Below, one piece after another: positions 944 to 11,859 of a stretch of 11,859 bases of DNA. Each line of letters starts with the position of its first letter. Position 1 is the first letter of the stretch. This DNA is from a virus. Taxonomy: Duplodnaviria; Heunggongvirae; Uroviricota; Caudoviricetes. The stretch is taken from the IMG/VR virus record IMGVR_UViG_3300044799_000708; one strand, 5' to 3'. Position numbers and translations under genes: made by a program. Under the pieces are notes generated by a model. That model had not been told where the DNA came from, searched no databases, and saw nothing but the letters and a program-made list of their open reading frames with translations.

Positions 944-1230
944 AAATCGATAAACAGCATTATGGTAATCTAACAAAGGATAGTATATGGGAAGAAATAA
1001 CAACAATTAGGGCAAAAATTATTTCCTTGCTACAAGATGATAAAATCAGTTCGCTAAAAACGGTAAGTGTGTTGAAGGAAATGAAAAAGAATTTTAGCAA
1101 TCATATTTTTCAAGAATTGCTGACGAGAGATGAAAAAACTAAAGATATATGGGGGAAATTTGTTTCAAAAAACTCTGATGTTATCATAAAATATTATAGA
1201 TGGAAAGAGAAAGAGGGGGTAAAATTATGA
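940..1230 (+). CDS. Hypothetical protein
   Basis: The track ORF starts at 928; the ATG at 940 overlaps the upstream stop (ATGA) and is the likelier start. Coupled to the ATPase by ATGA at 1227-1230. Confidence 0.7.
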   Translation: MKIDKQHYGNLTKDSIWEEITTIRAKIISLLQDDKISSLKTVSVLKEMKKNFSNHIFQELLTRDEKTKDIWGKFVSKNSDVIIKYYRWKEKEGVKL

Positions 1231-2327
1231 AAAGTGTAAATCATAAGCAGTTAGGGAAGCTGATAAGGGAAGCATATAAAAAGAAGAAAGCCTTATTCAT
1301 TTGGGGGGCTTGCGGAATTGGTAAGTCTGATGTTGTCAGAGACAGTGCCAAACAGATGGCAAAGGAAAAAGGTCTCATATATAATGAGGATATGACAAAA
1401 ATAAATGAGAAAACTGTCTTTTCTGTTATTGATATTCGTCTTTCACAAATGGATTTGTCAGACATAAGGGGATTGCCCAAATATGATGAGAAAACGGAGA
1501 CTACAAAATGGTATGCCCCTAACTTCTTGCCAAAGAATGGTCAGGGTCTTCTTTTCCTTGACGAGATTAACCTTGCAGTCCCGACAGTTCAGGCTACAGC
1601 CTATCAATTAATATTGAATAGGAGAATAGGCGACTATGTTCTGCCTGATGGATGGCTTGTTGTCTCGGCAGGAAACAGGCTTGAAGACCGTGCTAATGTC
1701 TTCGAGACTCCTGCACCATTGAACAACCGTTTCCTTCACATAGAATTGGCACAGCCTGATGTGGATGACTGGATAGATTGGGCTGTCGCTAACGGCATAG
1801 ACACTCGTATCTCCACATATTTGAAGTTCGAGCCAGTCCTTTACAGGTTTGATAAGAACATAAAAGACAAAGCATTCCCCACGCCAAGAACTTGGTTCTT
1901 CGCTTCTGAAATGATAAACGATAAGGACACGACAAAGGACTTGGACATGATAGAAATACTCGTAGCTTCGTGTGTTGGTGAGGCTACAGCGATGAAATTC
2001 ACTGCTTGGCTTAAGCTGACGGAGAAGATAGACATCAAGGAAATCCTTAAGAACCCTATGGAAGCGAAACTGCCAAAGGAACTTGATATGCTGTATGCAA
2101 CCATTTCAGGCATATTGGAACACTACAAGAGGGATAGGAAACTGCTCAAGCCTATCATACAGCTTGCAACAAGGCTGACCCCTGAATATGCTGTGCTGTT
2201 GCTGAAACTCATCAAAACGCACACTCCGAGATTCACACAGGAGGTCTATAACATGCCAGAATGGAAGGAAAATGCCAAAAGGCTGCAGCCATACTTTAGG
2301 AAAGAAGAAGGAGAGGGAGAAGAATGA
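1227..2327 (+). CDS. MoxR-like AAA+ ATPase (AAA_5/AAA_3-type), partner of VWA protein
   Basis: Walker A GACGIGKS (1305-1328), Walker B LLFLDEIN (D at 1560), IRLSQ...DIRGLP, SAGNR sensor, LNNRF arginine finger and FPTPRTW. Start 1227 is preferred over 1200 (ATGA overlap, GAGGGGG RBS). Confidence 0.92.
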   Translation: MKSVNHKQLGKLIREAYKKKKALFIWGACGIGKSDVVRDSAKQMAKEKGLIYNEDMTKINEKTVFSVIDIRLSQMDLSDIRGLPKYDEKTETTKWYAPNFLPKNGQGLLFLDEINLAVPTVQATAYQLILNRRIGDYVLPDGWLVVSAGNRLEDRANVFETPAPLNNRFLHIELAQPDVDDWIDWAVANGIDTRISTYLKFEPVLYRFDKNIKDKAFPTPRTWFFASEMINDKDTTKDLDMIEILVASCVGEATAMKFTAWLKLTEKIDIKEILKNPMEAKLPKELDMLYATISGILEHYKRDRKLLKPIIQLATRLTPEYAVLLLKLIKTHTPRFTQEVYNMPEWKENAKRLQPYFRKEEGEGEE

Positions 2328-2536: not shown

Positions 2537-4984
2537 ATGATACCTGAAATATCACAGATGACCGCAGAAGACAGGATTAGGAAGGTCAGGATACAGTTTC
2601 TGCGTGAAAAGCCATTCTTCGCCCATTTGTCCCTTTATCTTAATCTCATAGAAAGAAAGGATTTTGACACTATGGGTGTGGATTTTGAGGGAGGTCTTAT
2701 CTATAATCCAAAATTCGTCAATAGCTTTAACTTTACGGACTTGAAGATGATAATAGCCCACGAAACTTGTTTAGTGCCAGAAACTTTTGTATGGAACAAA
2801 AAAATAAATGAAATAAAGGTTGGTGATAAGATTTTAGGAGATGATGGTAAAGAACATAAAGTTATTTTGACCAATGAAAGAAAATATGAAGGAGAATTGA
2901 TATGTATAACACCAAGAGGTTCTTTGCCTATTAAAATAACGCCAAATCATCCAGTTTTAACTACAAATGGTTTATGGAAAGGATTCCAAAAACCAAATTA
3001 TAGAAAATTAAAGAATAGAGTTGGAGAAAATAAATTTATTTTCGAAAAATTAAAATGGAAAAATGCAGATGAACTCACAGAAAATGATTGGTTGGTGATA
3101 CCTAAAATTAAACCATTAGAAAAATATGAAAATTATGTAATAAAATTCAGTTATGGTAATGTATGGTCAACTACTCTAAAAAAATCGATAAGGGAAGGAT
3201 TGAAATTAGATGAGGATATTGCATATTTTTTGGGTTTGTATACTGCTGATGGATGGGCAAACATAAAATCTAAAACTATTGGCATATGTTTACATTCTAA
3301 AAAAGATATAGAAAAAATAGAAAAAATAAAGAAAATAATAGAAAATAAAATGGGTTTCAAGGTCAACATAAAAAAAAGAACTGATTCAAATTGTTTCGAT
3401 GTCAAATTTTCCTCAAGACCATTTGTTTCGTTTTTACATGAAAATATTGGAACAAGAGCATGGAATAAGAAAATTCCAGAATTTATTATATTTAATAATG
3501 ACGAAATTAAAAAGGCATTTCTGAAAGGGTTCATAGATGGCGATGGATATAATAATCACATAAATATTGGTTTTGCTACGACTTCAGAAAATCTTGCCCA
3601 TCAATTATTTATGCTTTCTGCGAGTTTAGGTATAATTTTTAATATGTATAAGGAAAGAAGAAATACAAAGAAAGGACTTTCTCGATTAAATAAAATTAAT
3701 AAAGAATGGACTGACATTTATATATTTTTTTCAAGATGTCATAAAATTTTTGATGTTTTGAATTTGCCTCATAAAGAAAGAACAATAAGAAAAACAACAT
3801 GGTTCAAAGAATACGAAGATTACATTCTTATAAAAATAAGAAAAATACAAAGGGAAAAATATGATGGTTTAGTTTTTAATTTGCAGACAGAAAATCAAAA
3901 TTATATATCAAATAATATTGTGGTTCATAATTGTCATCTCGCCTTTCTTCACCTGACGAGAAGGGGTAACAGGATACCTTTGCTATGGAACATCGCTGTG
4001 GATTTGGCTGTCAATAACATTCTCCATGATGATGGCTTTCACATTCCAGAAGGATTCCTTATGAACAGAAAATACAAGGACATGACTGCAGAGCAAATTT
4101 ATGATGACCTGTATAAGAATGCAAAGCATATCAAAATGAGAATTGGAGGCATATGCAAGAAATGCTCTGACGGAACGCAGGAAGTAGATTTCAACGATAC
4201 GCAGGGTAAAATGTTCGATAAGCACTCTTTTCCGAAGAGACAGGATAATGGTGCAGGTAGAAAAAACAGCAAGGGAAGCGAAAAGAATGGCAAAGAAAGC
4301 GAAAAGGATAAGGATGATGACACCAAAGGAGAGCCATTATCTGATGATGAGTTAAAAAAACTGCAGGACTTGTGGAAGAAAAGGATAGTTGAAGCCGAAA
4401 CAATCGCAAAACAGATGGGGAAATTGCCTGCAAACCTTGAGCGTATGTTTGGAAACCTTCTGGACTCAAGAATAAACTGGAAGGCTCTTCTTTATCGTTA
4501 TATTACGCAGGAGATTCCATATGACAGCACATATGCAAGACCCTCGAAGAAATCCGAGAGCGTAGGCGTTTATTTGCCCTATCAGGTCAAGGAAAACATT
4601 GAGATAATCATAGGTGTGGACAGTTCTGGAAGCATAACGCAGGAGGAATTGACCGAGTTTATGAGCGAAATGGTAGCCATAGCGAAAAGCTTTTCGAGTA
4701 TAAGAATGTCTGTCATCGTCTGTGACAGCGAAATACATGAAACCTATGAGGTTATGAATGGCTTTTCTCCGACTGACATCAAGATTAGTGGTGGTGGTGG
4801 AACTGATTTTCGACCAGTTTTCAAATGGATAGAAAAAAATAAGCCAAGTGCAAAGTTGCTTGTCTATTTCACGGATGGCTATGGCAGTTATCCTGCAAAT
4901 GAGACAGTGAAAACCCTATGGGTCTTAAAAGAGAATTATGATGTTCCTTTCGGGGAAAAGGTTATCTATAAGGGAAGTGATTGA
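2537..4984 (+). CDS. DUF2201-type putative metallopeptidase + VWA-like protein, intein-containing precursor (815 aa; about 427 aa spliced)
   Basis: The N-terminus has PFFAHL, TMGVD and YNPKF. After splicing it reads IIAHETCHLAFLHLTRRG...LWNIAVDLAVN (HExxH). Other features are a low-complexity charged linker, W...L.RY, the MIDAS motif VDSSGS (4619-4633), GGGGTDFRPVF and YFTDGYG. AGGTGA RBS. Confidence 0.9.
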   Translation: MIPEISQMTAEDRIRKVRIQFLREKPFFAHLSLYLNLIERKDFDTMGVDFEGGLIYNPKFVNSFNFTDLKMIIAHETCLVPETFVWNKKINEIKVGDKILGDDGKEHKVILTNERKYEGELICITPRGSLPIKITPNHPVLTTNGLWKGFQKPNYRKLKNRVGENKFIFEKLKWKNADELTENDWLVIPKIKPLEKYENYVIKFSYGNVWSTTLKKSIREGLKLDEDIAYFLGLYTADGWANIKSKTIGICLHSKKDIEKIEKIKKIIENKMGFKVNIKKRTDSNCFDVKFSSRPFVSFLHENIGTRAWNKKIPEFIIFNNDEIKKAFLKGFIDGDGYNNHINIGFATTSENLAHQLFMLSASLGIIFNMYKERRNTKKGLSRLNKINKEWTDIYIFFSRCHKIFDVLNLPHKERTIRKTTWFKEYEDYILIKIRKIQREKYDGLVFNLQTENQNYISNNIVVHNCHLAFLHLTRRGNRIPLLWNIAVDLAVNNILHDDGFHIPEGFLMNRKYKDMTAEQIYDDLYKNAKHIKMRIGGICKKCSDGTQEVDFNDTQGKMFDKHSFPKRQDNGAGRKNSKGSEKNGKESEKDKDDDTKGEPLSDDELKKLQDLWKKRIVEAETIAKQMGKLPANLERMFGNLLDSRINWKALLYRYITQEIPYDSTYARPSKKSESVGVYLPYQVKENIEIIIGVDSSGSITQEELTEFMSEMVAIAKSFSSIRMSVIVCDSEIHETYEVMNGFSPTDIKISGGGGTDFRPVFKWIEKNKPSAKLLVYFTDGYGSYPANETVKTLWVLKENYDVPFGEKVIYKGSD
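2768..3931 (+). mobile_element. Intein (388 aa) with LAGLIDADG homing endonuclease
   Basis: Block A CLVPETFV (Cys1), block B ITPNHP, LAGLIDADG motifs AYFLGLYTADG (3221-3253) and AFLKGFIDGDG (3515-3547), block F GLVFNLQT, and block G IVVHN followed by +1 Cys (3932-3934). More AT-rich than the exteins. Confidence 0.95.
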
Positions 4985-4985
4985 T

Positions 4986-5768
4986 ATGACAACAATAATG
5001 GAAAGGGTAGTAGAGTTTAAGGATTCGGAAACATTGAAAACTTTGGCAGAGAGAAGCAAACAGATGGAAAAGATAATGGAAGCGATAGGTCAGGGATATG
5101 AGCCTTGTCTTGATTTATTCTTTAATATTTTCCAGAAACTGAACCCGAAGAAAAAGATTCTTGACATTCCTCTTCTTCCAAAAGACCCAGATGTGAAGAT
5201 AGTCTTGCACCAGTTCGGTTTTTTCCTAAAGAAACCTTATAAGGAAAGAGCCGAGCCTGTTGATAAGGAAAATCTTTTCTCATTTTTCCGTGACAACAAG
5301 CCAGAAACCTTCGAAAAGGTAGCGGATGAGATAAACTACAGGCATATGCGTATAGCTTTCCGTGACTTTTGCAGGATTATGAACGCCTTTATCAAGGAAA
5401 ATAAGCACAAGGATGCTGATGGAACAGATGAGGTAATTTCGGTGAAGATACCTTTTAAAAAAGAAATATTGACACATGATGGTGAGAAAACAAAGGTAAC
5501 TTCTATTGATTTCGAAGGATATGAATCGGGCATGACCATATGTATTCATTTACTATCAAATAGTATTGATGATATTGAACTTGGCGAAGAGAATCTGGAA
5601 CTGGACAACATTCTGATTCTTGAACAAATCCAGAAGGAAGTTTTGGAAGGCACTGAAAAGCTTCTGAAAAAGGTAAAGGATGAAAGAAAAAACAAGGGTT
5701 CTGTGGTTTCGCTCTACGAACAACTGCAAGAAAAGTTCTCGAACTTCATTATGGCGGATGAATTATGA
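4986..5768 (+). CDS. Hypothetical protein (260 aa), ends in ADEL tag
   Basis: The track ORF starts at 4938; the ATG at 4986, just after the VWA stop and with a GGAAGTGA RBS, is likelier. No family recognised. Confidence 0.8.
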   Translation: MTTIMERVVEFKDSETLKTLAERSKQMEKIMEAIGQGYEPCLDLFFNIFQKLNPKKKILDIPLLPKDPDVKIVLHQFGFFLKKPYKERAEPVDKENLFSFFRDNKPETFEKVADEINYRHMRIAFRDFCRIMNAFIKENKHKDADGTDEVISVKIPFKKEILTHDGEKTKVTSIDFEGYESGMTICIHLLSNSIDDIELGEENLELDNILILEQIQKEVLEGTEKLLKKVKDERKNKGSVVSLYEQLQEKFSNFIMADEL

Positions 5769-5778
5769 AGGTGAAAAT

Positions 5779-6192
5779 ATGATAGTAAAATTCAGAGCGT
5801 GGCATAAGAAAGAAAAGAAGATGTATAAAATGGGAACTAATTTTTTGAGTTTAAACTGGCAAGGATGGCATTTGATAAGTTCACTAACAGGAGAATCGTT
5901 AGTTTCAAATAAAAATGGAATTCTCATGCAATCCACTGGTCTCAAAGACAAAAATGGCAAGAAGATTTTTGAAGGCGATATACTCAAACTCAATTCGAAA
6001 GGTTTGCCAAGATGGGTTGGGCAAATAAAAAAATTTAGTGGTGGTTTGATATTCATAGAAGAAGATGATGATGAAAATCGAATAGAATATACAGGTGTGT
6101 TGCTAAAAAGATTAGCAGACAAAACACAAAAAATAATGGAAGTAATTGGCAACATCTACGAAAATCCTAAACTTTTGAAGGTGAAAAAATGA
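5779..6192 (+). CDS. yopX: YopX family protein
   Basis: MIVKFRAWH, LMQSTGLKDKNGKKIFEGDIL and EVIGNIYENPKLL are YopX hallmarks. The start at 5779 follows an AGGTGA RBS. Confidence 0.92.
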   Translation: MIVKFRAWHKKEKKMYKMGTNFLSLNWQGWHLISSLTGESLVSNKNGILMQSTGLKDKNGKKIFEGDILKLNSKGLPRWVGQIKKFSGGLIFIEEDDDENRIEYTGVLLKRLADKTQKIMEVIGNIYENPKLLKVKK

Positions 6193-6536
6193 TAAGGTTT
6201 CCAAGACGTAATTGTGTAATTTGTGGCAAAGAAATGCTGTGGAATAAAGAGAATCTTTTATATGAATGTCCAAATCCGACTCACAAATATACTAACATAT
6301 TTGATAAAGCAGAAAGCGAAGAGGGAAACAAGAATGGAAGGAAAAAAATGAAAGATAGAAAAGAATTTCAATGGTCAAATACTCAAATCGGACTTTATCT
6401 GGTAGGTGGAATATCATTTTTGTATGTTGGAATAACCAGAATTAGTGGTGATTTCCTATATATTTTGGGAATTATTTTTGGAATATTTTTCATATTTGCA
6501 TCTCTTGGCGCAATACATGGGAGAATGAAAAAATGA
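6189..6536 (+). CDS. Zn-ribbon + two-transmembrane-helix protein
   Basis: N-terminal CVIC...CPNPTH and two C-terminal hydrophobic stretches. An internal start (MKDRKEF, after GGAAGG) is possible. Confidence 0.65.
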   Translation: MIRFPRRNCVICGKEMLWNKENLLYECPNPTHKYTNIFDKAESEEGNKNGRKKMKDRKEFQWSNTQIGLYLVGGISFLYVGITRISGDFLYILGIIFGIFFIFASLGAIHGRMKK

Positions 6537-6700
6537 AATTAAACGAACCATACATTCCACTTGCCATCATATTTTCTTTTTTATCTGGAATATATATGGG
6601 GGCAGCAATAATGACATTCAATATCATTGCGTGGATTTTTGGCTTACCATTAATGTTTTTTACTTTCTATTTGATAAGTAGAATTTATTCTACAAAGTAG
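6533..6700 (+). CDS. Small membrane protein (55 aa, 2 TM), absent from ORF track
   Basis: Translated by hand: MKLNEPYIPLAIIFSFLSGIYMGAAIMTFNIIAWIFGLPLMFFTFYLISRIYSTK. It has an ATGA overlap and exactly fills the gap between neighbours. Confidence 0.75.
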   Translation: MKLNEPYIPLAIIFSFLSGIYMGAAIMTFNIIAWIFGLPLMFFTFYLISRIYSTK

Positions 6701-6708
6701 ATGAAAAT

Positions 6709-7185
6709 ATGAAAACCGCAATTGAAGAAACAATAGTCATGCGAGGGGAGTTTCATCCCAGAGGTTTGAGGAGAAAGCATAAAAGAATATTGAGCTATTA
6801 TCCGAAGGTTATGTTCAAGAAACAGGCAATGTCATCAGGCAAAAGGGATGAGATATTTCAACTATATTATTTTGGTTGGAAAATAAATTGGATAGCCAAA
6901 AAACTGAAACTGGACTGGCATACTGTAAAATATCATGTTGATGAAGAATATAAAAAAAGACGCTTGAAACTGTCAGGTATAAGACTAAAACGAATTTTAG
7001 CCGACCCAATTGAAAGAAAGAGGCAGTTTGCGAGAGTCGATGCTTGCAGAAAGGAAAGGAAAAAGAAGGATAATAGGTATAGGAAATGGATTAGAGGTGT
7101 GACAAGAAAAGCTGGAAGGAAATATGATGAAAAAAATAGAGAACATAGAAGAAAGAGGGCAATAGAAAGGCATAGAAAAAGGTGA
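6709..7185 (+). CDS. Basic helix-turn-helix DNA-binding protein
   Basis: KRDEIFQLYYFGWKINWIAKKLKLDWHTVKYHV fits an HTH (IA..L.....TV..H). It is followed by a long Arg/Lys-rich helix. Confidence 0.6.
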   Translation: MKTAIEETIVMRGEFHPRGLRRKHKRILSYYPKVMFKKQAMSSGKRDEIFQLYYFGWKINWIAKKLKLDWHTVKYHVDEEYKKRRLKLSGIRLKRILADPIERKRQFARVDACRKERKKKDNRYRKWIRGVTRKAGRKYDEKNREHRRKRAIERHRKR

Positions 7186-7189
7186 AAGG

Positions 7190-7573
7190 ATGAAAAAACA
7201 AAAGAAATGCAGAAAATGCAAAAAAGATATGCCAATAGCTGTAATATTCAATACGAATGCCCTAACTATTGCCCAATATTTTAGTTGGGTGGAAGGTGGT
7301 AAAAAAATGGGTCTATGTCCAGATTGCTTTTTGAAACTTCAAAATAGTAGTTCTGTTCCTAAATATCGTTGGAAAACAAGATTCACTGTGAAACAGCATT
7401 TATATCGTGGCGAAACCTCTGGCGGATGGTATATTTGGGACAGAAGAGAGAAAACTTGGGCATATTGCTTTGAAAATCATAAAGGTGGATTCGAACATAA
7501 AAAGGATGCTCTGGAATGTGCAAAGAAAATGGAAGAAGAATACATTTCTAAAAAGATAGCAGATGATTTATGA
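7190..7573 (+). CDS. Zn-finger protein (CRKC...CPDC), ends in ADDL tag
   Basis: 127-aa ORF with an AGGTGA RBS and two CxxC pairs. Confidence 0.75.
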   Translation: MKKQKKCRKCKKDMPIAVIFNTNALTIAQYFSWVEGGKKMGLCPDCFLKLQNSSSVPKYRWKTRFTVKQHLYRGETSGGWYIWDRREKTWAYCFENHKGGFEHKKDALECAKKMEEEYISKKIADDL

Positions 7574-7725
7574 TGAAAGGGAAGAAGACTTTCAATTCCA
7601 TTTCCTATTTTTCCACTATCATATTGCGTGCAGTAGATACATTTGTTGCAAATATTTCAACTAATTATTATCTGGATGGGGTAAATAGTTGAATATTCGT
7701 CTATTATATTGGATTAGGATGATGT

Positions 7726-7801
7726 TGTATATACGGAAAAACGATATGTTTTTAAGCTATGATACTAATTACCAAGTATTACTGCATATTGCTGTATAAA
7801 C
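7726..7801 (+). promoter_or_regulatory. Putative promoter P2 (TTTTTAAG) bracketed by TGTATATAC / TGTATAAAC
   Basis: Lies in the largest internal intergenic gap. TATA-like TTTTTAAGCT at 7749-7758 shares AAGCT with P1. Palindrome copies at 7726-7734 and 7793-7801. The BRE match is poorer than at P1. Confidence 0.45.
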
Positions 7802-7813
7802 AAAGGTGATGTT

Positions 7814-7948
7814 ATGAGAGGTTCGAAAAAAGTGCTGACCTGTGATATGGTCATGGAGAAGGCGACAAGAGTAGGCAATAGTAGCCATATCATTCTGCCC
7901 ATTTCGTGGCTCAACAAGAAAGTTATGGTAATAAAAATGGAGAAATAG
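7814..7948 (+). CDS. DUF2080-like (AbrB-fold) small protein, 44 aa, absent from ORF track
   Basis: MRGSKKVLTCDMVMEKATRVGNSSHIILPISWLNKKVMVIKMEK matches the archaeal K-x-x-x-x-G-N-S-x-H-x-x-L-P-x-x-W-x-x-K-x-V pattern. AAGGTGA RBS. Confidence 0.8.
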   Translation: MRGSKKVLTCDMVMEKATRVGNSSHIILPISWLNKKVMVIKMEK

Positions 7949-7958
7949 GGTGAAATAA

Positions 7959-8091
7959 ATGATACCAAGATTTAGAGCGTGGCATAACTGGCATAGACAC
8001 GAAGGTTATTTCCAACAAGTTGAACAGGTTAAGAAGAGCAGGAATCTTACCAAGAGTAATGTATAAAGCGAATCCTCTTGCAAGTCTGTAA
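7959..8091 (+). pseudogene. YopX 5' fragment fused out of frame to the 3' end of an HTH-like gene
   Basis: ATG 7959 with GGGTGA RBS gives MIPRFRAWH (YopX N-terminus) and stops at 8066. The +1 frame reads GIDTKVISNKLNRLRRAGILPR to a stop at 8089-8091 and has no start codon. TGGCATA direct repeat at the junction. Confidence 0.5.
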
Positions 8092-8101
8092 GGTGTGACA
8101 G

Positions 8102-8437
8102 ATGAAAATGGAAGTGGAAATCTGCGATAGTTGTAAATCTATGGTAGCAAAACATCAGTGCTTTATCTGCAAAAATATGTTATGCTCCAGTTGTGCCTCT
8201 GGCATATACATAGGAAAAAGTGAACCACTTGCCATTAGAACAACGCAAATATCAAGTATAAACAAGGATGAAAGGAAATACATATCAAGCATTTGCGACA
8301 AGTGTAGGGTAGAATTAAGGGATATGATAGGAAAATTTGAGCAGATGAAGATTGAAAAACAGGCACTGGTTGATAAGGAAATAATATTGTTCATAAAAGA
8401 AAAAATGGAATCGGTATTACTGGCTGATAAAATATGA
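8102..8437 (+). CDS. Zn-finger (B-box-like) protein, ends in ADKI tag
   Basis: CDSC...CFIC...LCSSC and CDKC; AGGTGTGA RBS. Confidence 0.75.
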   Translation: MKMEVEICDSCKSMVAKHQCFICKNMLCSSCASGIYIGKSEPLAIRTTQISSINKDERKYISSICDKCRVELRDMIGKFEQMKIEKQALVDKEIILFIKEKMESVLLADKI

Positions 8438-8727
8438 AAGAGAAAAAAATGACAGAAGAAGAAAAAGAAGCTGAAAGGAAATATCATAAAAGATACTACC
8501 ACAGTAACCAGAAATACAGGGAAAACCAGTTGCTTTATTACAAATTGAAGAGGATTAAAAAGGCTGTAAAAAGCCTGCGTGAATGTATACAGGTGAAAAA
8601 GGCAAGGACTATGGGCAATAGCTCTTGTGTCCTGCTTCCTAAAGATTGGGAAGGAAGAGATGTCATTTGTATTGACAACAAATTTTTCATGTTACAAATT
8701 TTCAAATCAAAAAGGTCGGAAACATGA
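8434..8727 (+). CDS. Basic helical protein with C-terminal DUF2080-like domain
   Basis: KKARTMGNSSCVLLPKDWEGRDVICI matches the same G-N-S..LP..W motif as 7814-7948. ATGA overlaps at both ends. Confidence 0.75.
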   Translation: MKEKKMTEEEKEAERKYHKRYYHSNQKYRENQLLYYKLKRIKKAVKSLRECIQVKKARTMGNSSCVLLPKDWEGRDVICIDNKFFMLQIFKSKRSET

Positions 8728-9275
8728 AATTGATACTTTATCATGGAACTTCGGGGAAAAATGCATGGAAAATAGAAAAGGAAGGCTTTCTTACCGACAA
8801 GAAATATAATTGGAAGGTAAAAAGTAAAAGGGGTTTTATTTATTTGAGCATAGCCTATGCACCGTTTTACAGTATGTCTACAAAGAATGCAAATGGCACT
8901 CTTGCGCTGATTAAGGTCGAAGTTGATACGGATGACCTTTACCCCGAAGATGATTTTTTAATGCTTATGATAGGCAAACCTGTCTATAAACAAAGGGATA
9001 TTGATAAGATAGACTTCGAGAAATACAAATATCTATGGAAAGCAAGTCTGGAATATCTCGGTAATGTTGCCGTGAAACCAGAAAAAATAAGGATTATTGG
9101 TATAACATATTTTGAAGGAAAATACCTGATAATGAAATGCGACCCTTGTATTACCCATCTTAATTTTAAAATTATGGGCAATTATTATGCAAAATTGACT
9201 AAATGGATTTTCGAAGGAAAAAATATTATGGAATTTCCTAATTTTATGGAGATGAAAAAAGAGGTAATATTATGA
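8724..9275 (+). CDS. Putative ADP-ribosyltransferase-fold protein (H-Y-type ART, PARP/Tpt1-like)
   Basis: N-terminal LYHGTS...A.KI.KEGF, then FIYLS...APFY and LIKVEV, which is the strand-motif order of H-Y-[EDQ] ART-fold proteins. Confidence 0.6.
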   Translation: MKLILYHGTSGKNAWKIEKEGFLTDKKYNWKVKSKRGFIYLSIAYAPFYSMSTKNANGTLALIKVEVDTDDLYPEDDFLMLMIGKPVYKQRDIDKIDFEKYKYLWKASLEYLGNVAVKPEKIRIIGITYFEGKYLIMKCDPCITHLNFKIMGNYYAKLTKWIFEGKNIMEFPNFMEMKKEVIL

Positions 9276-9323
9276 TTGCAACACACGAAGAAAGGCTGGA
9301 ATAATAATAGGGATGATGATAAA

Positions 9324-9563
9324 ATGACCGAAGAACAAAAAGAAAAAATAAAGGCATGGAGATGCTCAAAATGTGGTGGCATATATGTGGATGAAACCTG
9401 TAGTTGTCCAATATGGAATAAATCAGATAAACCAATAATTCTTATAGACAGGAATAAAATACTTGAAGAATTCAAAGAAATAATAAAAAGACATAAATGG
9501 TGCGGAAATATGTGCATAGGCGACATAATGTTGGCTTTAGAAGAACTCGAAGCGTCAAGGTGA
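9324..9563 (+). CDS. Zn-ribbon protein
   Basis: The track ORF uses TTG at 9276; the ATG at 9324 (MTEEQK) after GGGATGA is likelier. Contains CSKCGG...CSCP. Confidence 0.7.
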   Translation: MTEEQKEKIKAWRCSKCGGIYVDETCSCPIWNKSDKPIILIDRNKILEEFKEIIKRHKWCGNMCIGDIMLALEELEASR

Positions 9564-9567
9564 ATAA

Positions 9568-9843
9568 ATGATGTCCCAAAGAATAAGATTGAGAAGGCAA
9601 AAAGTCGGTGAAGTAAAGATAATCGTATTAGATGAAACATTTCAATTTAACGTAGTCACAGGAAACGGAACTTCCTCTCTTTATAACAAATTGAAAAATA
9701 TGAACAGGAATGATAGGGTTACGCTTTATTTTAAAATTAGGAAACAAAAAAAACTCGGCATATGCAGTTTTTCATATTCATGTGGAAACTGCCCATATAA
9801 AAAGGACAATAAATGCACATATAAGGAAAAGGAATTCAGATGA
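9568..9843 (+). CDS. Hypothetical protein with C-terminal Cys cluster
   Basis: GGTGA RBS; CSFSYSCGNCPY...KC. Confidence 0.7.
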   Translation: MMSQRIRLRRQKVGEVKIIVLDETFQFNVVTGNGTSSLYNKLKNMNRNDRVTLYFKIRKQKKLGICSFSYSCGNCPYKKDNKCTYKEKEFR

Positions 9844-10253
9844 GCGAGCATATAAGCGTTTCAGGGAGGGTTAAATATCATCATCTTGCATATAGAAAAC
9901 TCGGTTTTTCTTGGTGCAAGAGATGTAAAAAATTTGCAGACAGATTGAATATATATTTTGATGAGGGTTTTTTAGGTGATAGCATAAAGGTCGAGTGTGG
10001 CAGATGTGGCAAAACGATTTTTGTTGCTGAAACAACTGAAAAGACATATGCAAGGGACAATATAAAATGTTCGGTATGCGGAAAGAAAATCAGCCAATTC
10101 GATGCTTGGTGTATCAGCTATGAAACTATTATCACAGCTTCTAAAAAGGAAAATAAAAAAAGGGTATTATCACAAAAAGAAAATAAAAAAAGGGTATATT
10201 GTTCGGAAAAGTGTGAAAAAAAGGAAAAGGGGAAACAATATGACGGCAGATGA
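9840..10253 (+). CDS. Double Zn-finger protein (ribbon + TRASH/MYM-like CxxC...YCSxxC)
   Basis: CKRC...CGRC and CSVCGK...YCSEKC; ATGA overlap. Confidence 0.75.
   Translation: MSEHISVSGRVKYHHLAYRKLGFSWCKRCKKFADRLNIYFDEGFLGDSIKVECGRCGKTIFVAETTEKTYARDNIKCSVCGKKISQFDAWCISYETIITASKKENKKRVLSQKENKKRVYCSEKCEKKEKGKQYDGR
10127..10197. repeat. Interleaved in-frame direct repeat (30-nt period)
   Basis: GAAAATAAAAAAAGGGTAT at 10149-10167 and 10179-10197; TATTATCACA at 10127-10136 and 10165-10174. Encodes KENKKRV twice. Confidence 0.9.
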
Positions 10254-10347
10254 AGAAATTCCAAGATGCTATATCTGCGGTCATTCTATACTCTTAATAG
10301 ATGGTATATGGGTTTGCAATTTTTGTGGTGAAATTTACGAATATTAA
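10240..10347 (+). CDS. Mini Zn-ribbon protein (35 aa)
   Basis: MTADEEIPRCYICGHSILLIDGIWVCNFCGEIYEY is the 3' part of track ORF 10102-10347. ATG 10240 follows AAGGGG. CxxC-x12-CxxC. Confidence 0.65.
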   Translation: MTADEEIPRCYICGHSILLIDGIWVCNFCGEIYEY

Positions 10348-10762
10348 AAGAAAGTTTAAAATCTTAAAGGAGGATGAAAAAACAATAGTTATGGAATCGC
10401 CTGAAAATATTATAGAACAATATGAAAAAAGAACCAAAGCACTTGTCTTGAGAAGAATTCATAAGAAGGAAAATAAAAATCAAAGAAAGCTTTTCAAAAA
10501 AAGGGTGATGAGAAGAAGATTTTCTGTCGGGGATATAATTTTTATTACTATCACGCCTTCTACAGGTTTTAGGAAATTTGCAAGGGTTACAAAAATGAAT
10601 AGTAGATTGATTTCTGCCGATTTTATCTTTGGTGATAATATATTCAATTTCGAACTTCATAAAAAACTCTATATAATGGGAAAGGCAAGAAAAGAAGAAA
10701 GAAGGAATTTCGTAAAGCAACTTGAACAGATAGAAGCAATGAAATTTGCGGAGGCATTATGA
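10301..10762 (+). CDS. SH3/KOW-like paralog 1, ends in AEAL tag (start uncertain, possibly 10391)
   Basis: FSVGDII motif; ARKEERRNF + 12 aa + AEAL. Confidence 0.7.
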   Translation: MVYGFAIFVVKFTNIKRKFKILKEDEKTIVMESPENIIEQYEKRTKALVLRRIHKKENKNQRKLFKKRVMRRRFSVGDIIFITITPSTGFRKFARVTKMNSRLISADFIFGDNIFNFELHKKLYIMGKARKEERRNFVKQLEQIEAMKFAEAL

Positions 10763-11118
10763 TATTCAAAATTGGTGATATTGTGAAAATCAGAAACCAG
10801 ATACATAAAGATAGGTGTGTGGTAGGTTCAGGTTTCTATGGAAGAGCGGATTTACCCGAATATGTGATGAATAAGGTTGGCGAAATAATAAAAATACAGA
10901 CAGTTGAAGCCACATTCAAGAGGTTTCCATTCGAAAGGAAGGCGCATATCTATATGGTCTATTTTCTTTTTGATATTAGTATTGAATATAAATATATTTC
11001 CGAATTCACGGCTTTCCTTTTTGGTGATGAGATAGAGATGGCAACCGAAGAGGAAGGAAAGAAGTTCACAGGTATGAAGGATATACTGGTTGCCAAAGAA
11101 GTGGCTGATAGACTATGA
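10759..11118 (+). CDS. SH3/KOW-like paralog 2, ends in ADRL tag
   Basis: FKIGDIVKI...NKVGEIIKI; ATEEEGKKF + 12 aa + ADRL; GGAGG RBS and ATGA overlap. Confidence 0.8.
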   Translation: MIFKIGDIVKIRNQIHKDRCVVGSGFYGRADLPEYVMNKVGEIIKIQTVEATFKRFPFERKAHIYMVYFLFDISIEYKYISEFTAFLFGDEIEMATEEEGKKFTGMKDILVAKEVADRL

Positions 11119-11420
11119 GTGAAATAGTAAAAGTCGTAAAAATAATTGATGCAGATAGGCAAGCTGGATTCTCGGTAGTGGAAAGACCACCGAAACTCTT
11201 AATAGGTAAAATCGGCATGATAACCAGACCATTGATACAATGGGATGGCTATTGGGTCACTTTCTATTTCAAAAATAGAAAAAGGATATGCGAGAGGAAA
11301 GATGTTTTGAGTAAAGATGAACTTGTGGAAGCTACAGAAGAGGAAATCAAAAAATTCAATAAATTGCAGATAGAATTCGAAGAACAATATGAAGCGGAAA
11401 TGATGGCTGAAAGACTATGA
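11115..11420 (+). CDS. SH3/KOW-like paralog 3, ends in AERL tag
   Basis: IVKVVKI...IGKIGMIT...YWVTF; ATEEEIKKF + 16 aa + AERL; ATGA overlap. Confidence 0.8.
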   Translation: MSEIVKVVKIIDADRQAGFSVVERPPKLLIGKIGMITRPLIQWDGYWVTFYFKNRKRICERKDVLSKDELVEATEEEIKKFNKLQIEFEEQYEAEMMAERL

Positions 11421-11785
11421 TAAAATTAAATGAAATTAGATTTGGAGATATTGTAAAAACCATAGAAGTTTTTTTTCAATATGGAGATTCAATCTTTACG
11501 AGAGAAGAAAATATTGATAGTTTTATTAAAAAATCATGCAAACAAAAAGGTAGAATCGGTGAGATAACTGATATGCCTATACTACATGGTAATCGATACG
11601 ATGAACCATCAATAATTATATTTGAGGTTATGTTTATCGTCAAAAATAATTTTAAAGGAATTTTAATGGAAAAACGGACTCATATCCATTCAAATGCTTT
11701 TACAAAGGCGACAAAGGAAGAATGTGATAAATTTTTAAAATTGAAAGAGGATATAAAATTACAAAAATTTGCAGGTGAACTATGA
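11417..11785 (+). CDS. SH3/KOW-like paralog 4, ends in AGEL tag
   Basis: RFGDIVKT...GRIGEIT...FEVMF; ATKEECDKF + 12 aa + AGEL; ATGA overlap. Confidence 0.8.
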   Translation: MIKLNEIRFGDIVKTIEVFFQYGDSIFTREENIDSFIKKSCKQKGRIGEITDMPILHGNRYDEPSIIIFEVMFIVKNNFKGILMEKRTHIHSNAFTKATKEECDKFLKLKEDIKLQKFAGEL

Positions 11786-11859
11786 AAAATTTTAAGATTG
11801 GGAATATTGTGAAGGTGAAAATGCTACAAAATGCCCAGTATGGTAGTCATTGGGGACAG
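11782..11859 (+). CDS. SH3/KOW-like paralog 5 (partial, runs off window)
   Basis: MKNFKIGNIVKVKMLQNAQYGSHWGQ; GGTGA RBS, ATGA overlap, same FKIG.IVK start as paralog 2. Confidence 0.7.
   Translation, partial: MKNFKIGNIVKVKMLQNAQYGSHWGQ

Follow-up and report, generated by a model that had tools for sequence, protein, structure and literature searches.

Why do small proteins of unrelated families, encoded together in one viral operon, end in the same few residues? The question is raised by a stretch of 11,859 nucleotides from a virus of the Caudoviricetes (IMG/VR record IMGVR_UViG_3300044799_000708; the whole stretch is called the window here), on which all plausible genes lie on the + strand. 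An initial annotation of the window proposed that seven of about 24 complete genes share a four-residue C-terminal pattern, and that this pattern is a degron or docking signal. All seven tails were found where that annotation had placed them (FIMADEL ending at 5768, KKIADDL at 7573, VLLADKI at 8437, MKFAEAL at 10762, KEVADRL at 11118, EMMAERL at 11420 and QKFAGEL at 11785), and the end pattern is real; its frequency had been understated, and the motif is longer than four residues, a nine-residue helix end of A-x-x-x-A type. In the operon of this virus (virus W) 10 of 28 + strand genes carry the tail, nine of them in a strict form, and in a relative (virus X) it is found, counted loosely, on 13 of 23. 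The comparisons below show, at the level of sequence, that the tail is a genuine motif specific to its lineage, a terminal helix constrained as protein; between a third and a half of the operon's small soluble proteins bear it, and the viruses concerned form a small archaeal-type group. Its function is inferred: with a probability of roughly 0.5, we regard it as a common docking handle. The tail-bearing genes on the window, and the junction that follows the first of them, are:

4983..5768, + strand: F1, a lineage-specific protein of about 260 residues, always encoded directly after the VWA gene; tail FSNFIMADEL at 5739-5768
5751..5781, + strand: F1 junction, consisting of the tail codons, TGA, AGGTGAAAAT and ATG
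7190..7573, + strand: F2, a 127-residue Zn-ribbon protein; tail YISKKIADDL at 7544-7573
8102..8437, + strand: F3, a 111-residue B-box-like Zn protein; tail MESVLLADKI at 8408-8437
10391..10762, + strand (the reading frame may start at 10301): SH3-like barrel paralogue 1; tail IEAMKFAEAL
10759..11118, + strand: SH3-like barrel paralogue 2; tail LVAKEVADRL
11115..11420, + strand: SH3-like barrel paralogue 3; tail YEAEMMAERL
11417..11785, + strand: SH3-like barrel paralogue 4; tail IKLQKFAGEL
11782..11859, + strand: SH3-like barrel paralogue 5, start only, running off the window; it ends KLAEKL on contig L014

An identical 19.9-kb Logan contig (L014/L020) extends virus W beyond the end of the window, so that the contigs read for it represent about 20 kb of genome. 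Past paralogue 5, this contig encodes a 143-residue paralogue ending TIAEEI and then a 90-residue protein ending KMADTL, whose gene is the last of the operon, ends TTG TAA and has nothing coupled downstream. Relatives were reached through homologues of F1: virus Y (contig L021, F1 97% identical), virus Z (L015/L018, 43%) and virus X (L016 and L022, 40-41%). The control set comprised 13 viral loci found through the same AAA+ ATPase that is encoded on the window, namely G001 (the complete 95-kb genome behind L001) and 12 others, with 522 open reading frames (ORFs) in all, of which 67 end in ATGA. The strict motif was defined as [MILVF]-A-[DE]-x-[LIV] at the C-terminus, and the loose count adds near forms. 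The window itself has no match among phage records by megablast, and none of the tail-bearing proteins matches Pfam or PHROGs.

Alignment of all the tails gives the consensus hydrophobic(-9)-[A/S](-8)-x-x-[IVLM](-5)-A(-4)-[E/D](-3)-[K/R/x](-2)-[L/I](-1)-COOH, preceded by acidic residues. Ala(-4) is invariant (57 of 57 tails) and is usually paired with Ala or Ser at -8; all seven of the tails first noticed have a hydrophobic residue at -5; and in every family the chain terminates exactly after the final hydrophobic residue. All 17 tails outside the barrel family end in L, I or V, and 14 of them have D or E at -3; of 40 barrel-family tails, 25 have D or E at this position and 11 have K or R. Virus X has eight strict tails among its 23 + strand genes; its tails include VVAEKL, IIAEKL, FVAEKI, LIAEKI, EVAEKL, ELAEKL, RIAEKL and ELAERL, besides near forms such as NVAKEI, QVAKSI and DVARRL, and the same pattern is seen on contig L034. 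Within the operon the tail is absent from enzymes, AbrB-like regulators, the YopX protein and membrane proteins. A 67-residue protein encoded at 2324-2527, between the ATPase and VWA genes, ends ILLKKL, with the hydrophobic spacing of the tail and Leu replacing Ala; it is conserved in virus Y, where it ends IFLKKL.

The carriers are not one dispersed family. BLAST comparison of the proteins without their tails leaves F1, the two Zn proteins and the barrel paralogues as four mutually unrelated groups, as had been supposed from the window, and at least eight unrelated families of small soluble proteins are tailed once the relatives are counted. A profile search of 1.8 billion proteins for the barrel family yielded 43 cluster representatives, nearly all with the tail. 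A homologue search with the 111-residue Zn protein matched only itself. The IYSYGHHFPIA domain family is more widespread: four of 27 homologues end IAEKL, VAEKI or IAEGL and the others end differently; three of the tailed homologues were traced to contigs with the operon (L021, L022), and the other two lie on contigs too short to tell (one of 2.1 kb; L023, 1.7 kb). Because in this widespread family only members from this virus group are tailed, the tail looks to have been acquired within the lineage.

Chance is excluded as the source of the tails. The strict motif occurs internally at a rate of about 0.001 per position, against which its frequency at C-termini is 9 of 28 genes in virus W (binomial P = 7e-21) and 8 of 23 in virus X (P = 5e-19), or 8 of about 35 after collapse to families (P = 2e-17), all of these P values being optimistic in that the motif was defined after it had been seen. 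In the control loci it terminates none of the 522 ORFs.

An explanation at the level of DNA would be that the gene end serves translational coupling and recombination, the peptide being a passenger of whatever nucleotides those processes require. Six of the seven tailed genes that are complete on the window stop in an ATGA overlap, and eight of the ten tails of virus W end NTA TGA overlapping the next start, as in known ATGA coupling with a Shine-Dalgarno sequence inside the upstream gene. Runs of at least 5 nucleotides that match a Shine-Dalgarno sequence are present in three of the ten W tails only: AEAL of paralogue 1, in which GCGGAGG also spells GGAGG; AGEL of paralogue 4, in which the Gly-Glu codons spell GGTGA within AGGTGA; and AEEI, with GGAGG; the other tails have matches of 4 nucleotides or fewer. 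In virus W, 7 of 14 coupled genes are tailed compared with 2 of 14 uncoupled genes (P = 0.10, the excess coming mostly from the run of paralogues), and paralogues in virus X share the codons GCT GAG AAA TTA TGA.

Coupling does not account for the tail, however. In virus X, of 9 coupled genes 4 are tailed, as are 4 of the 14 that are uncoupled (Fisher P = 0.66), and none of the 67 control ORFs that end in ATGA has the motif, so that the comparison with ATGA coupling, once made, upholds the earlier judgement that coupling is not the cause. About half of all tails lie outside any overlap, two of them on operon-final genes; their contexts include TAA and TAG stops, separate GGTGA or GGAGG sites and a gap of 223 nucleotides. 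The gene after ADEL has, as first described, its own ribosome-binding site (AGGTGA), its ATG beginning 11 nucleotides past the stop (10 intervening nucleotides), and other coupled genes on the window do end differently (KVKK, RSET, GEE and EFR). A Shine-Dalgarno sequence with a bulged base (GGCTGAT in place of GGTGAT) was also considered, and was rejected since the preceding G is inconsistent and uncoupled tails keep the residues.

The same genomes contain an array of tiny genes on the minus strand (L014 13067-18508, beyond the window end; L034 4438-9456) with a second recurring tail, K-[LI]-[KE]-[KE]-V-[IV], for example K-L-K-E-V-I, whose codons GAG GTG ATA spell the Shine-Dalgarno sequence of the next gene, GAGGTGAT; a few hybrids (KLAEML, LLAEVL) also occur there. 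That one genome should hold a tail that so clearly encodes a Shine-Dalgarno sequence lends the passenger explanation some credit. Judged by its codons, however, the tail of the minus-strand array is DNA-driven and that of the + strand operon is not, a contrast that helps the argument for constraint on the protein.

Comparison of orthologues also bears on this. Five F1 homologues at 40-97% identity end IMADEL, IIADSL or VVAEKL; in viruses W, Z and X the Ala, the acid and the Leu of the F1 tail are kept, with Leu codons TTA, CTG and CTA and stops TGA, TAA and TGA, respectively, in three junction contexts. In virus Y the tail of the F2 orthologue (L021 6710-7063) reads EIADEL, and its Ala codon differs synonymously. 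The F3 orthologue in virus X (L022 6756-7091) ends EEVLIAEKI with a TAG stop and a separate ribosome-binding site; its body is only 28% identical to that of F3 in virus W, yet six of the last nine residues are the same. A 142-residue protein of virus X (X142), with no gene downstream, ends GCT GAG AAG TTG TGA on contig L016 and GCC GAA AAA CTC TAA on L022, so that the last four codons have four synonymous and no non-synonymous changes and the stop differs as well. Across all tails the wobble base of the Ala codon is T, G, A and once C (GCG, GCA and GCT among the seven on the window, the variation that first suggested selection on the protein), and Leu is encoded by five codons. This pattern of substitution, with codons and stops changing while residues stay, indicates that the tail is kept by selection on the protein rather than on the DNA. 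A neutral passenger should have decayed in orthologues whose bodies are 28-47% identical, and these keep the motif; tails also persist without any downstream gene.

The DNA of the tail nevertheless has a second role, as a recombination joint. Contigs L016 and L022 of virus X differ by one extra gene of 55 residues (X55) in L016, and because a copy of the tail, AATAGCYGARAA, stands at each boundary of this indel, one gene and one tail were gained or lost by tail-to-tail recombination. On contig L034 an orphan tail, GTC GCC GAA AAG TTA TGA (V-A-E-K-L-stop, 1350-1367), lies immediately behind the stop codon of the final + strand gene and looks like the scar of a deleted gene. Viruses W and Y differ by a four-gene indel bounded by GGTGAAA-ATG junction repeats, and an identical junction of tail, ribosome-binding site and start follows F1 in both, with the YopX gene next in W (5779-6192) and F2 next in Y. 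At 7959-8066 the window holds an ORF of 35 codons that starts MIPRFRAWH, the first nine residues of the YopX gene of virus Y (L021 7449-7904); it is what a gene replacement left behind at a conserved ribosome-binding-site junction. Whole-gene indels bounded by a repeated element, the mark of junction cassettes, are thus found at X55, at the L034 relic and between W and Y. These gene orders indicate firmly that recombination in the DNA of the tail and ribosome-binding-site junction carries the tail to new genes and moves whole genes.

In this respect the tail resembles the promoter early stem-loop (PeSL) elements of T4-type phages, which have been described as mobile regulatory cassettes mediating modular shuffling (PMC2839356, PMC4122927): in both, short repeats stand at gene boundaries where whole genes are gained, lost and reordered. 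PeSLs, however, consist of an intergenic promoter and stem-loop, whereas here the repeat lies inside coding sequence and is conserved as a peptide, the junctions measure 0-12 nucleotides, and there is no intergenic promoter with stem-loop and no promoter or terminator. The X55 indel and the L034 relic speak for a peptide that is only a by-product of cassette junctions; on the other side, the core of the tail has only about 8 of 15 bases fixed, too few for a good recombination target across lineages. Given the comparisons with coupling and among orthologues above, we consider it improbable that the peptide is a mere passenger.

A second alternative accepts selection on the protein and dispenses with a partner: the A-x-x-x-A end may be a generic cap or self-association helix that stabilizes or dimerizes small proteins, harmless or mildly useful, its recurrence being due to recombinational copying. 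The pattern small-x-x-x-small is a general one in helix packing; in predicted models the tail is always the end of a helix; the model of the barrel family consists of a barrel and one terminal helix of 22 residues, with a predicted local distance difference test (pLDDT) score of about 93 in the tail; and position -3 tolerates Lys or Arg. An end-cap does not readily explain why the same nine positions and the same exact end are found in unrelated folds (the two Zn proteins, the barrels, the alpha/beta protein F1 and the IYSYGHHFPIA domain), nor why IYSYGHHFPIA homologues outside the lineage do well without it, and Ala(-4) is more strictly conserved than a generic cap needs. We regard this alternative as less likely than docking but, in view of the confident terminal helix of the barrel model, as a serious rival.

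We favour the reading of the tail as a docking handle. The tail, about nine residues long, makes up the final two to three turns of an amphipathic helix. A single partner, from the virus or from its host, would recognize the hydrophobic face of this helix, lined with Ala, along with the free carboxyl end, and many different small proteins would be brought to the same place through that one partner. The exact chain end and the invariant Ala(-4), usually with Ala or Ser at -8, suggest a reader that packs tightly against the helix face and senses the free C-terminus. Several observations weigh against this reading, besides the optimism of the P values. The confident prediction for the barrel family may mean that its tail packs on its own domain or dimerizes rather than being free. 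The acid at -3 is not essential, because about a quarter of barrel members have K or R there. The precomputed Pfam tables of L014, L020 and L022 list no PDZ, TPR or other C-terminus-binding domain, and no reader was identified among the contigs read. F1, itself tailed, is the one gene in view that matches the tail in lineage specificity; it has no Foldseek match in the PDB and none in the Atlas; its model has a pLDDT of 77, and the AFDB gave two unnamed proteins at a TM score of 0.45. F1 has no relatives in IMG/VR, and in JGI metagenomes it was found at three loci only.

One viral candidate for a reader, proposed in the initial annotation, is the pair of genes at the head of the operon:

1227..2327, + strand: MoxR-type AAA+ ATPase (phrog_1297, E = 8e-90), with homologues in 13 tail-free loci
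2537..4984, + strand: DUF2201 metallopeptidase-VWA precursor, with an intein at about 2768-3931 and an intact metal-ion-dependent adhesion site (MIDAS) motif, DSSGS..T..D

On this view the MoxR AAA+/peptidase-VWA pair would recognize the tail as a degron or client signal, for instance through binding of the acid or the carboxylate to the MIDAS metal, much as the C-terminal carboxylate of C3b binds the MIDAS metal of factor B. Wherever a tail-bearing contig is long enough to show it, the operon begins with the pair and the tailed genes come after; the MIDAS motif is intact; and G001, the closest outgroup to possess the pair, has another recurring tail on small genes immediately downstream of it. 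However, all 13 control loci have the pair with an intact MIDAS and none has this tail, only G001 showing any recurring tail at all; many tails of the barrel family have Lys or Arg where the acid at -3 would stand; and for degradation there is no evidence at all. Prediction of a complex between the intein-free DUF2201/VWA protein of virus X, with Mg and Zn, and a tailed barrel protein scored 0.00, which counts neither for nor against. The proposal that the virus's own pair reads the tail is accordingly unsupported: the module is present in all tailed contigs long enough to show it, but also at the 13 loci without this tail, and we consider a degron or client signal for this pair improbable.

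Inteins in these genes vary among these close relatives: the VWA-peptidase contains one in virus W, two in virus Y and none in virus X, and the ATPase contains one each in Y and X and none in W (L021 54-1586 and 1787-5371; L022 6-1712). The recurring end in G001 (loci L029-L033) is E-x-hydrophobic-hydrophobic-x-x-[Y/L/F], often after L-T-x-x, and occurs on about 24 of 166 ORFs compared with 3.7 expected (for example within 4551-7325, 18718-20183 and 93181-95085). Its carriers are mostly small CxxC proteins just downstream of the pair; most are not linked by BLAST, and they may be one very divergent family.

Two other targeting signals were considered and rejected: a membrane-targeting helix, since the tail, by its residues, is not basic but acidic or neutral; and retrieval to the endoplasmic reticulum of the KDEL type, which requires [KRHQSA]-[DENQ]-E-L at the C-terminus in a eukaryotic secretory setting, since no tails but those ending ADEL, on F1 in W and Y and on F2 in Y, conform to this sequence and the operons are of prokaryote type, overlapping and led by Shine-Dalgarno sequences. 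The + strand operon is closed by a TnpB gene (IS605 OrfB; L014 11632-12855, about 1.2 kb past the window end). An Aenigmatarchaeota host, suggested by TnpB, was likewise rejected: the best match is 56% identical, and the metagenome-assembled genome in which it lies has 45% GC compared with 33% for the virus.

C-terminal docking peptides that address many proteins to one hub include the PIP-box and other clamp-binding peptides, class III PDZ ligands (x-[DE]-x-hydrophobic-COOH) and the MIM1 helices of ESCRT-III proteins, which are read by the MIT domain of Vps4. With these the tail shares its position at the extreme C-terminus, its unrelated carriers, the hydrophobic residue that ends the chain, in many cases an acid at -3, and an amphipathic helix; it differs in that the invariant Ala(-4) and the A-x-x-x-A spacing match none of their consensus sequences, the acid is not obligatory, and the carriers are viral proteins of one operon. 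Nor does the tail resemble the ...LAA end of ssrA-type degrons. The capsid targeting sequence of phage T4, a cleaved N-terminal address peptide shared by several proteins, is likewise one short peptide on unrelated proteins of one virus lineage, but the tail is C-terminal, has no known link to the virion and is borne by proteins that look early or accessory. Full-text literature searches found no published description of such a tail, and a docking handle of this kind looks undescribed in the literature searched.

A more ambitious version of the docking reading, which we advance tentatively, is that of an address-tag system: the helix would be pasted onto new genes by recombination and recognized by one reader, either a host hub or the AAA+/VWA/F1 module, the signal and the joint being one and the same. 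That one stretch of DNA can serve both as peptide signal and as joint for recombination would offer a simple route by which unrelated genes acquire a targeting signal and become mobile as cassettes. In uncultured viruses most of the small early genes lack an assigned function; if the tag is shared in this sense, many of them would act through one partner, and finding that partner could explain dozens of orphan proteins at once.

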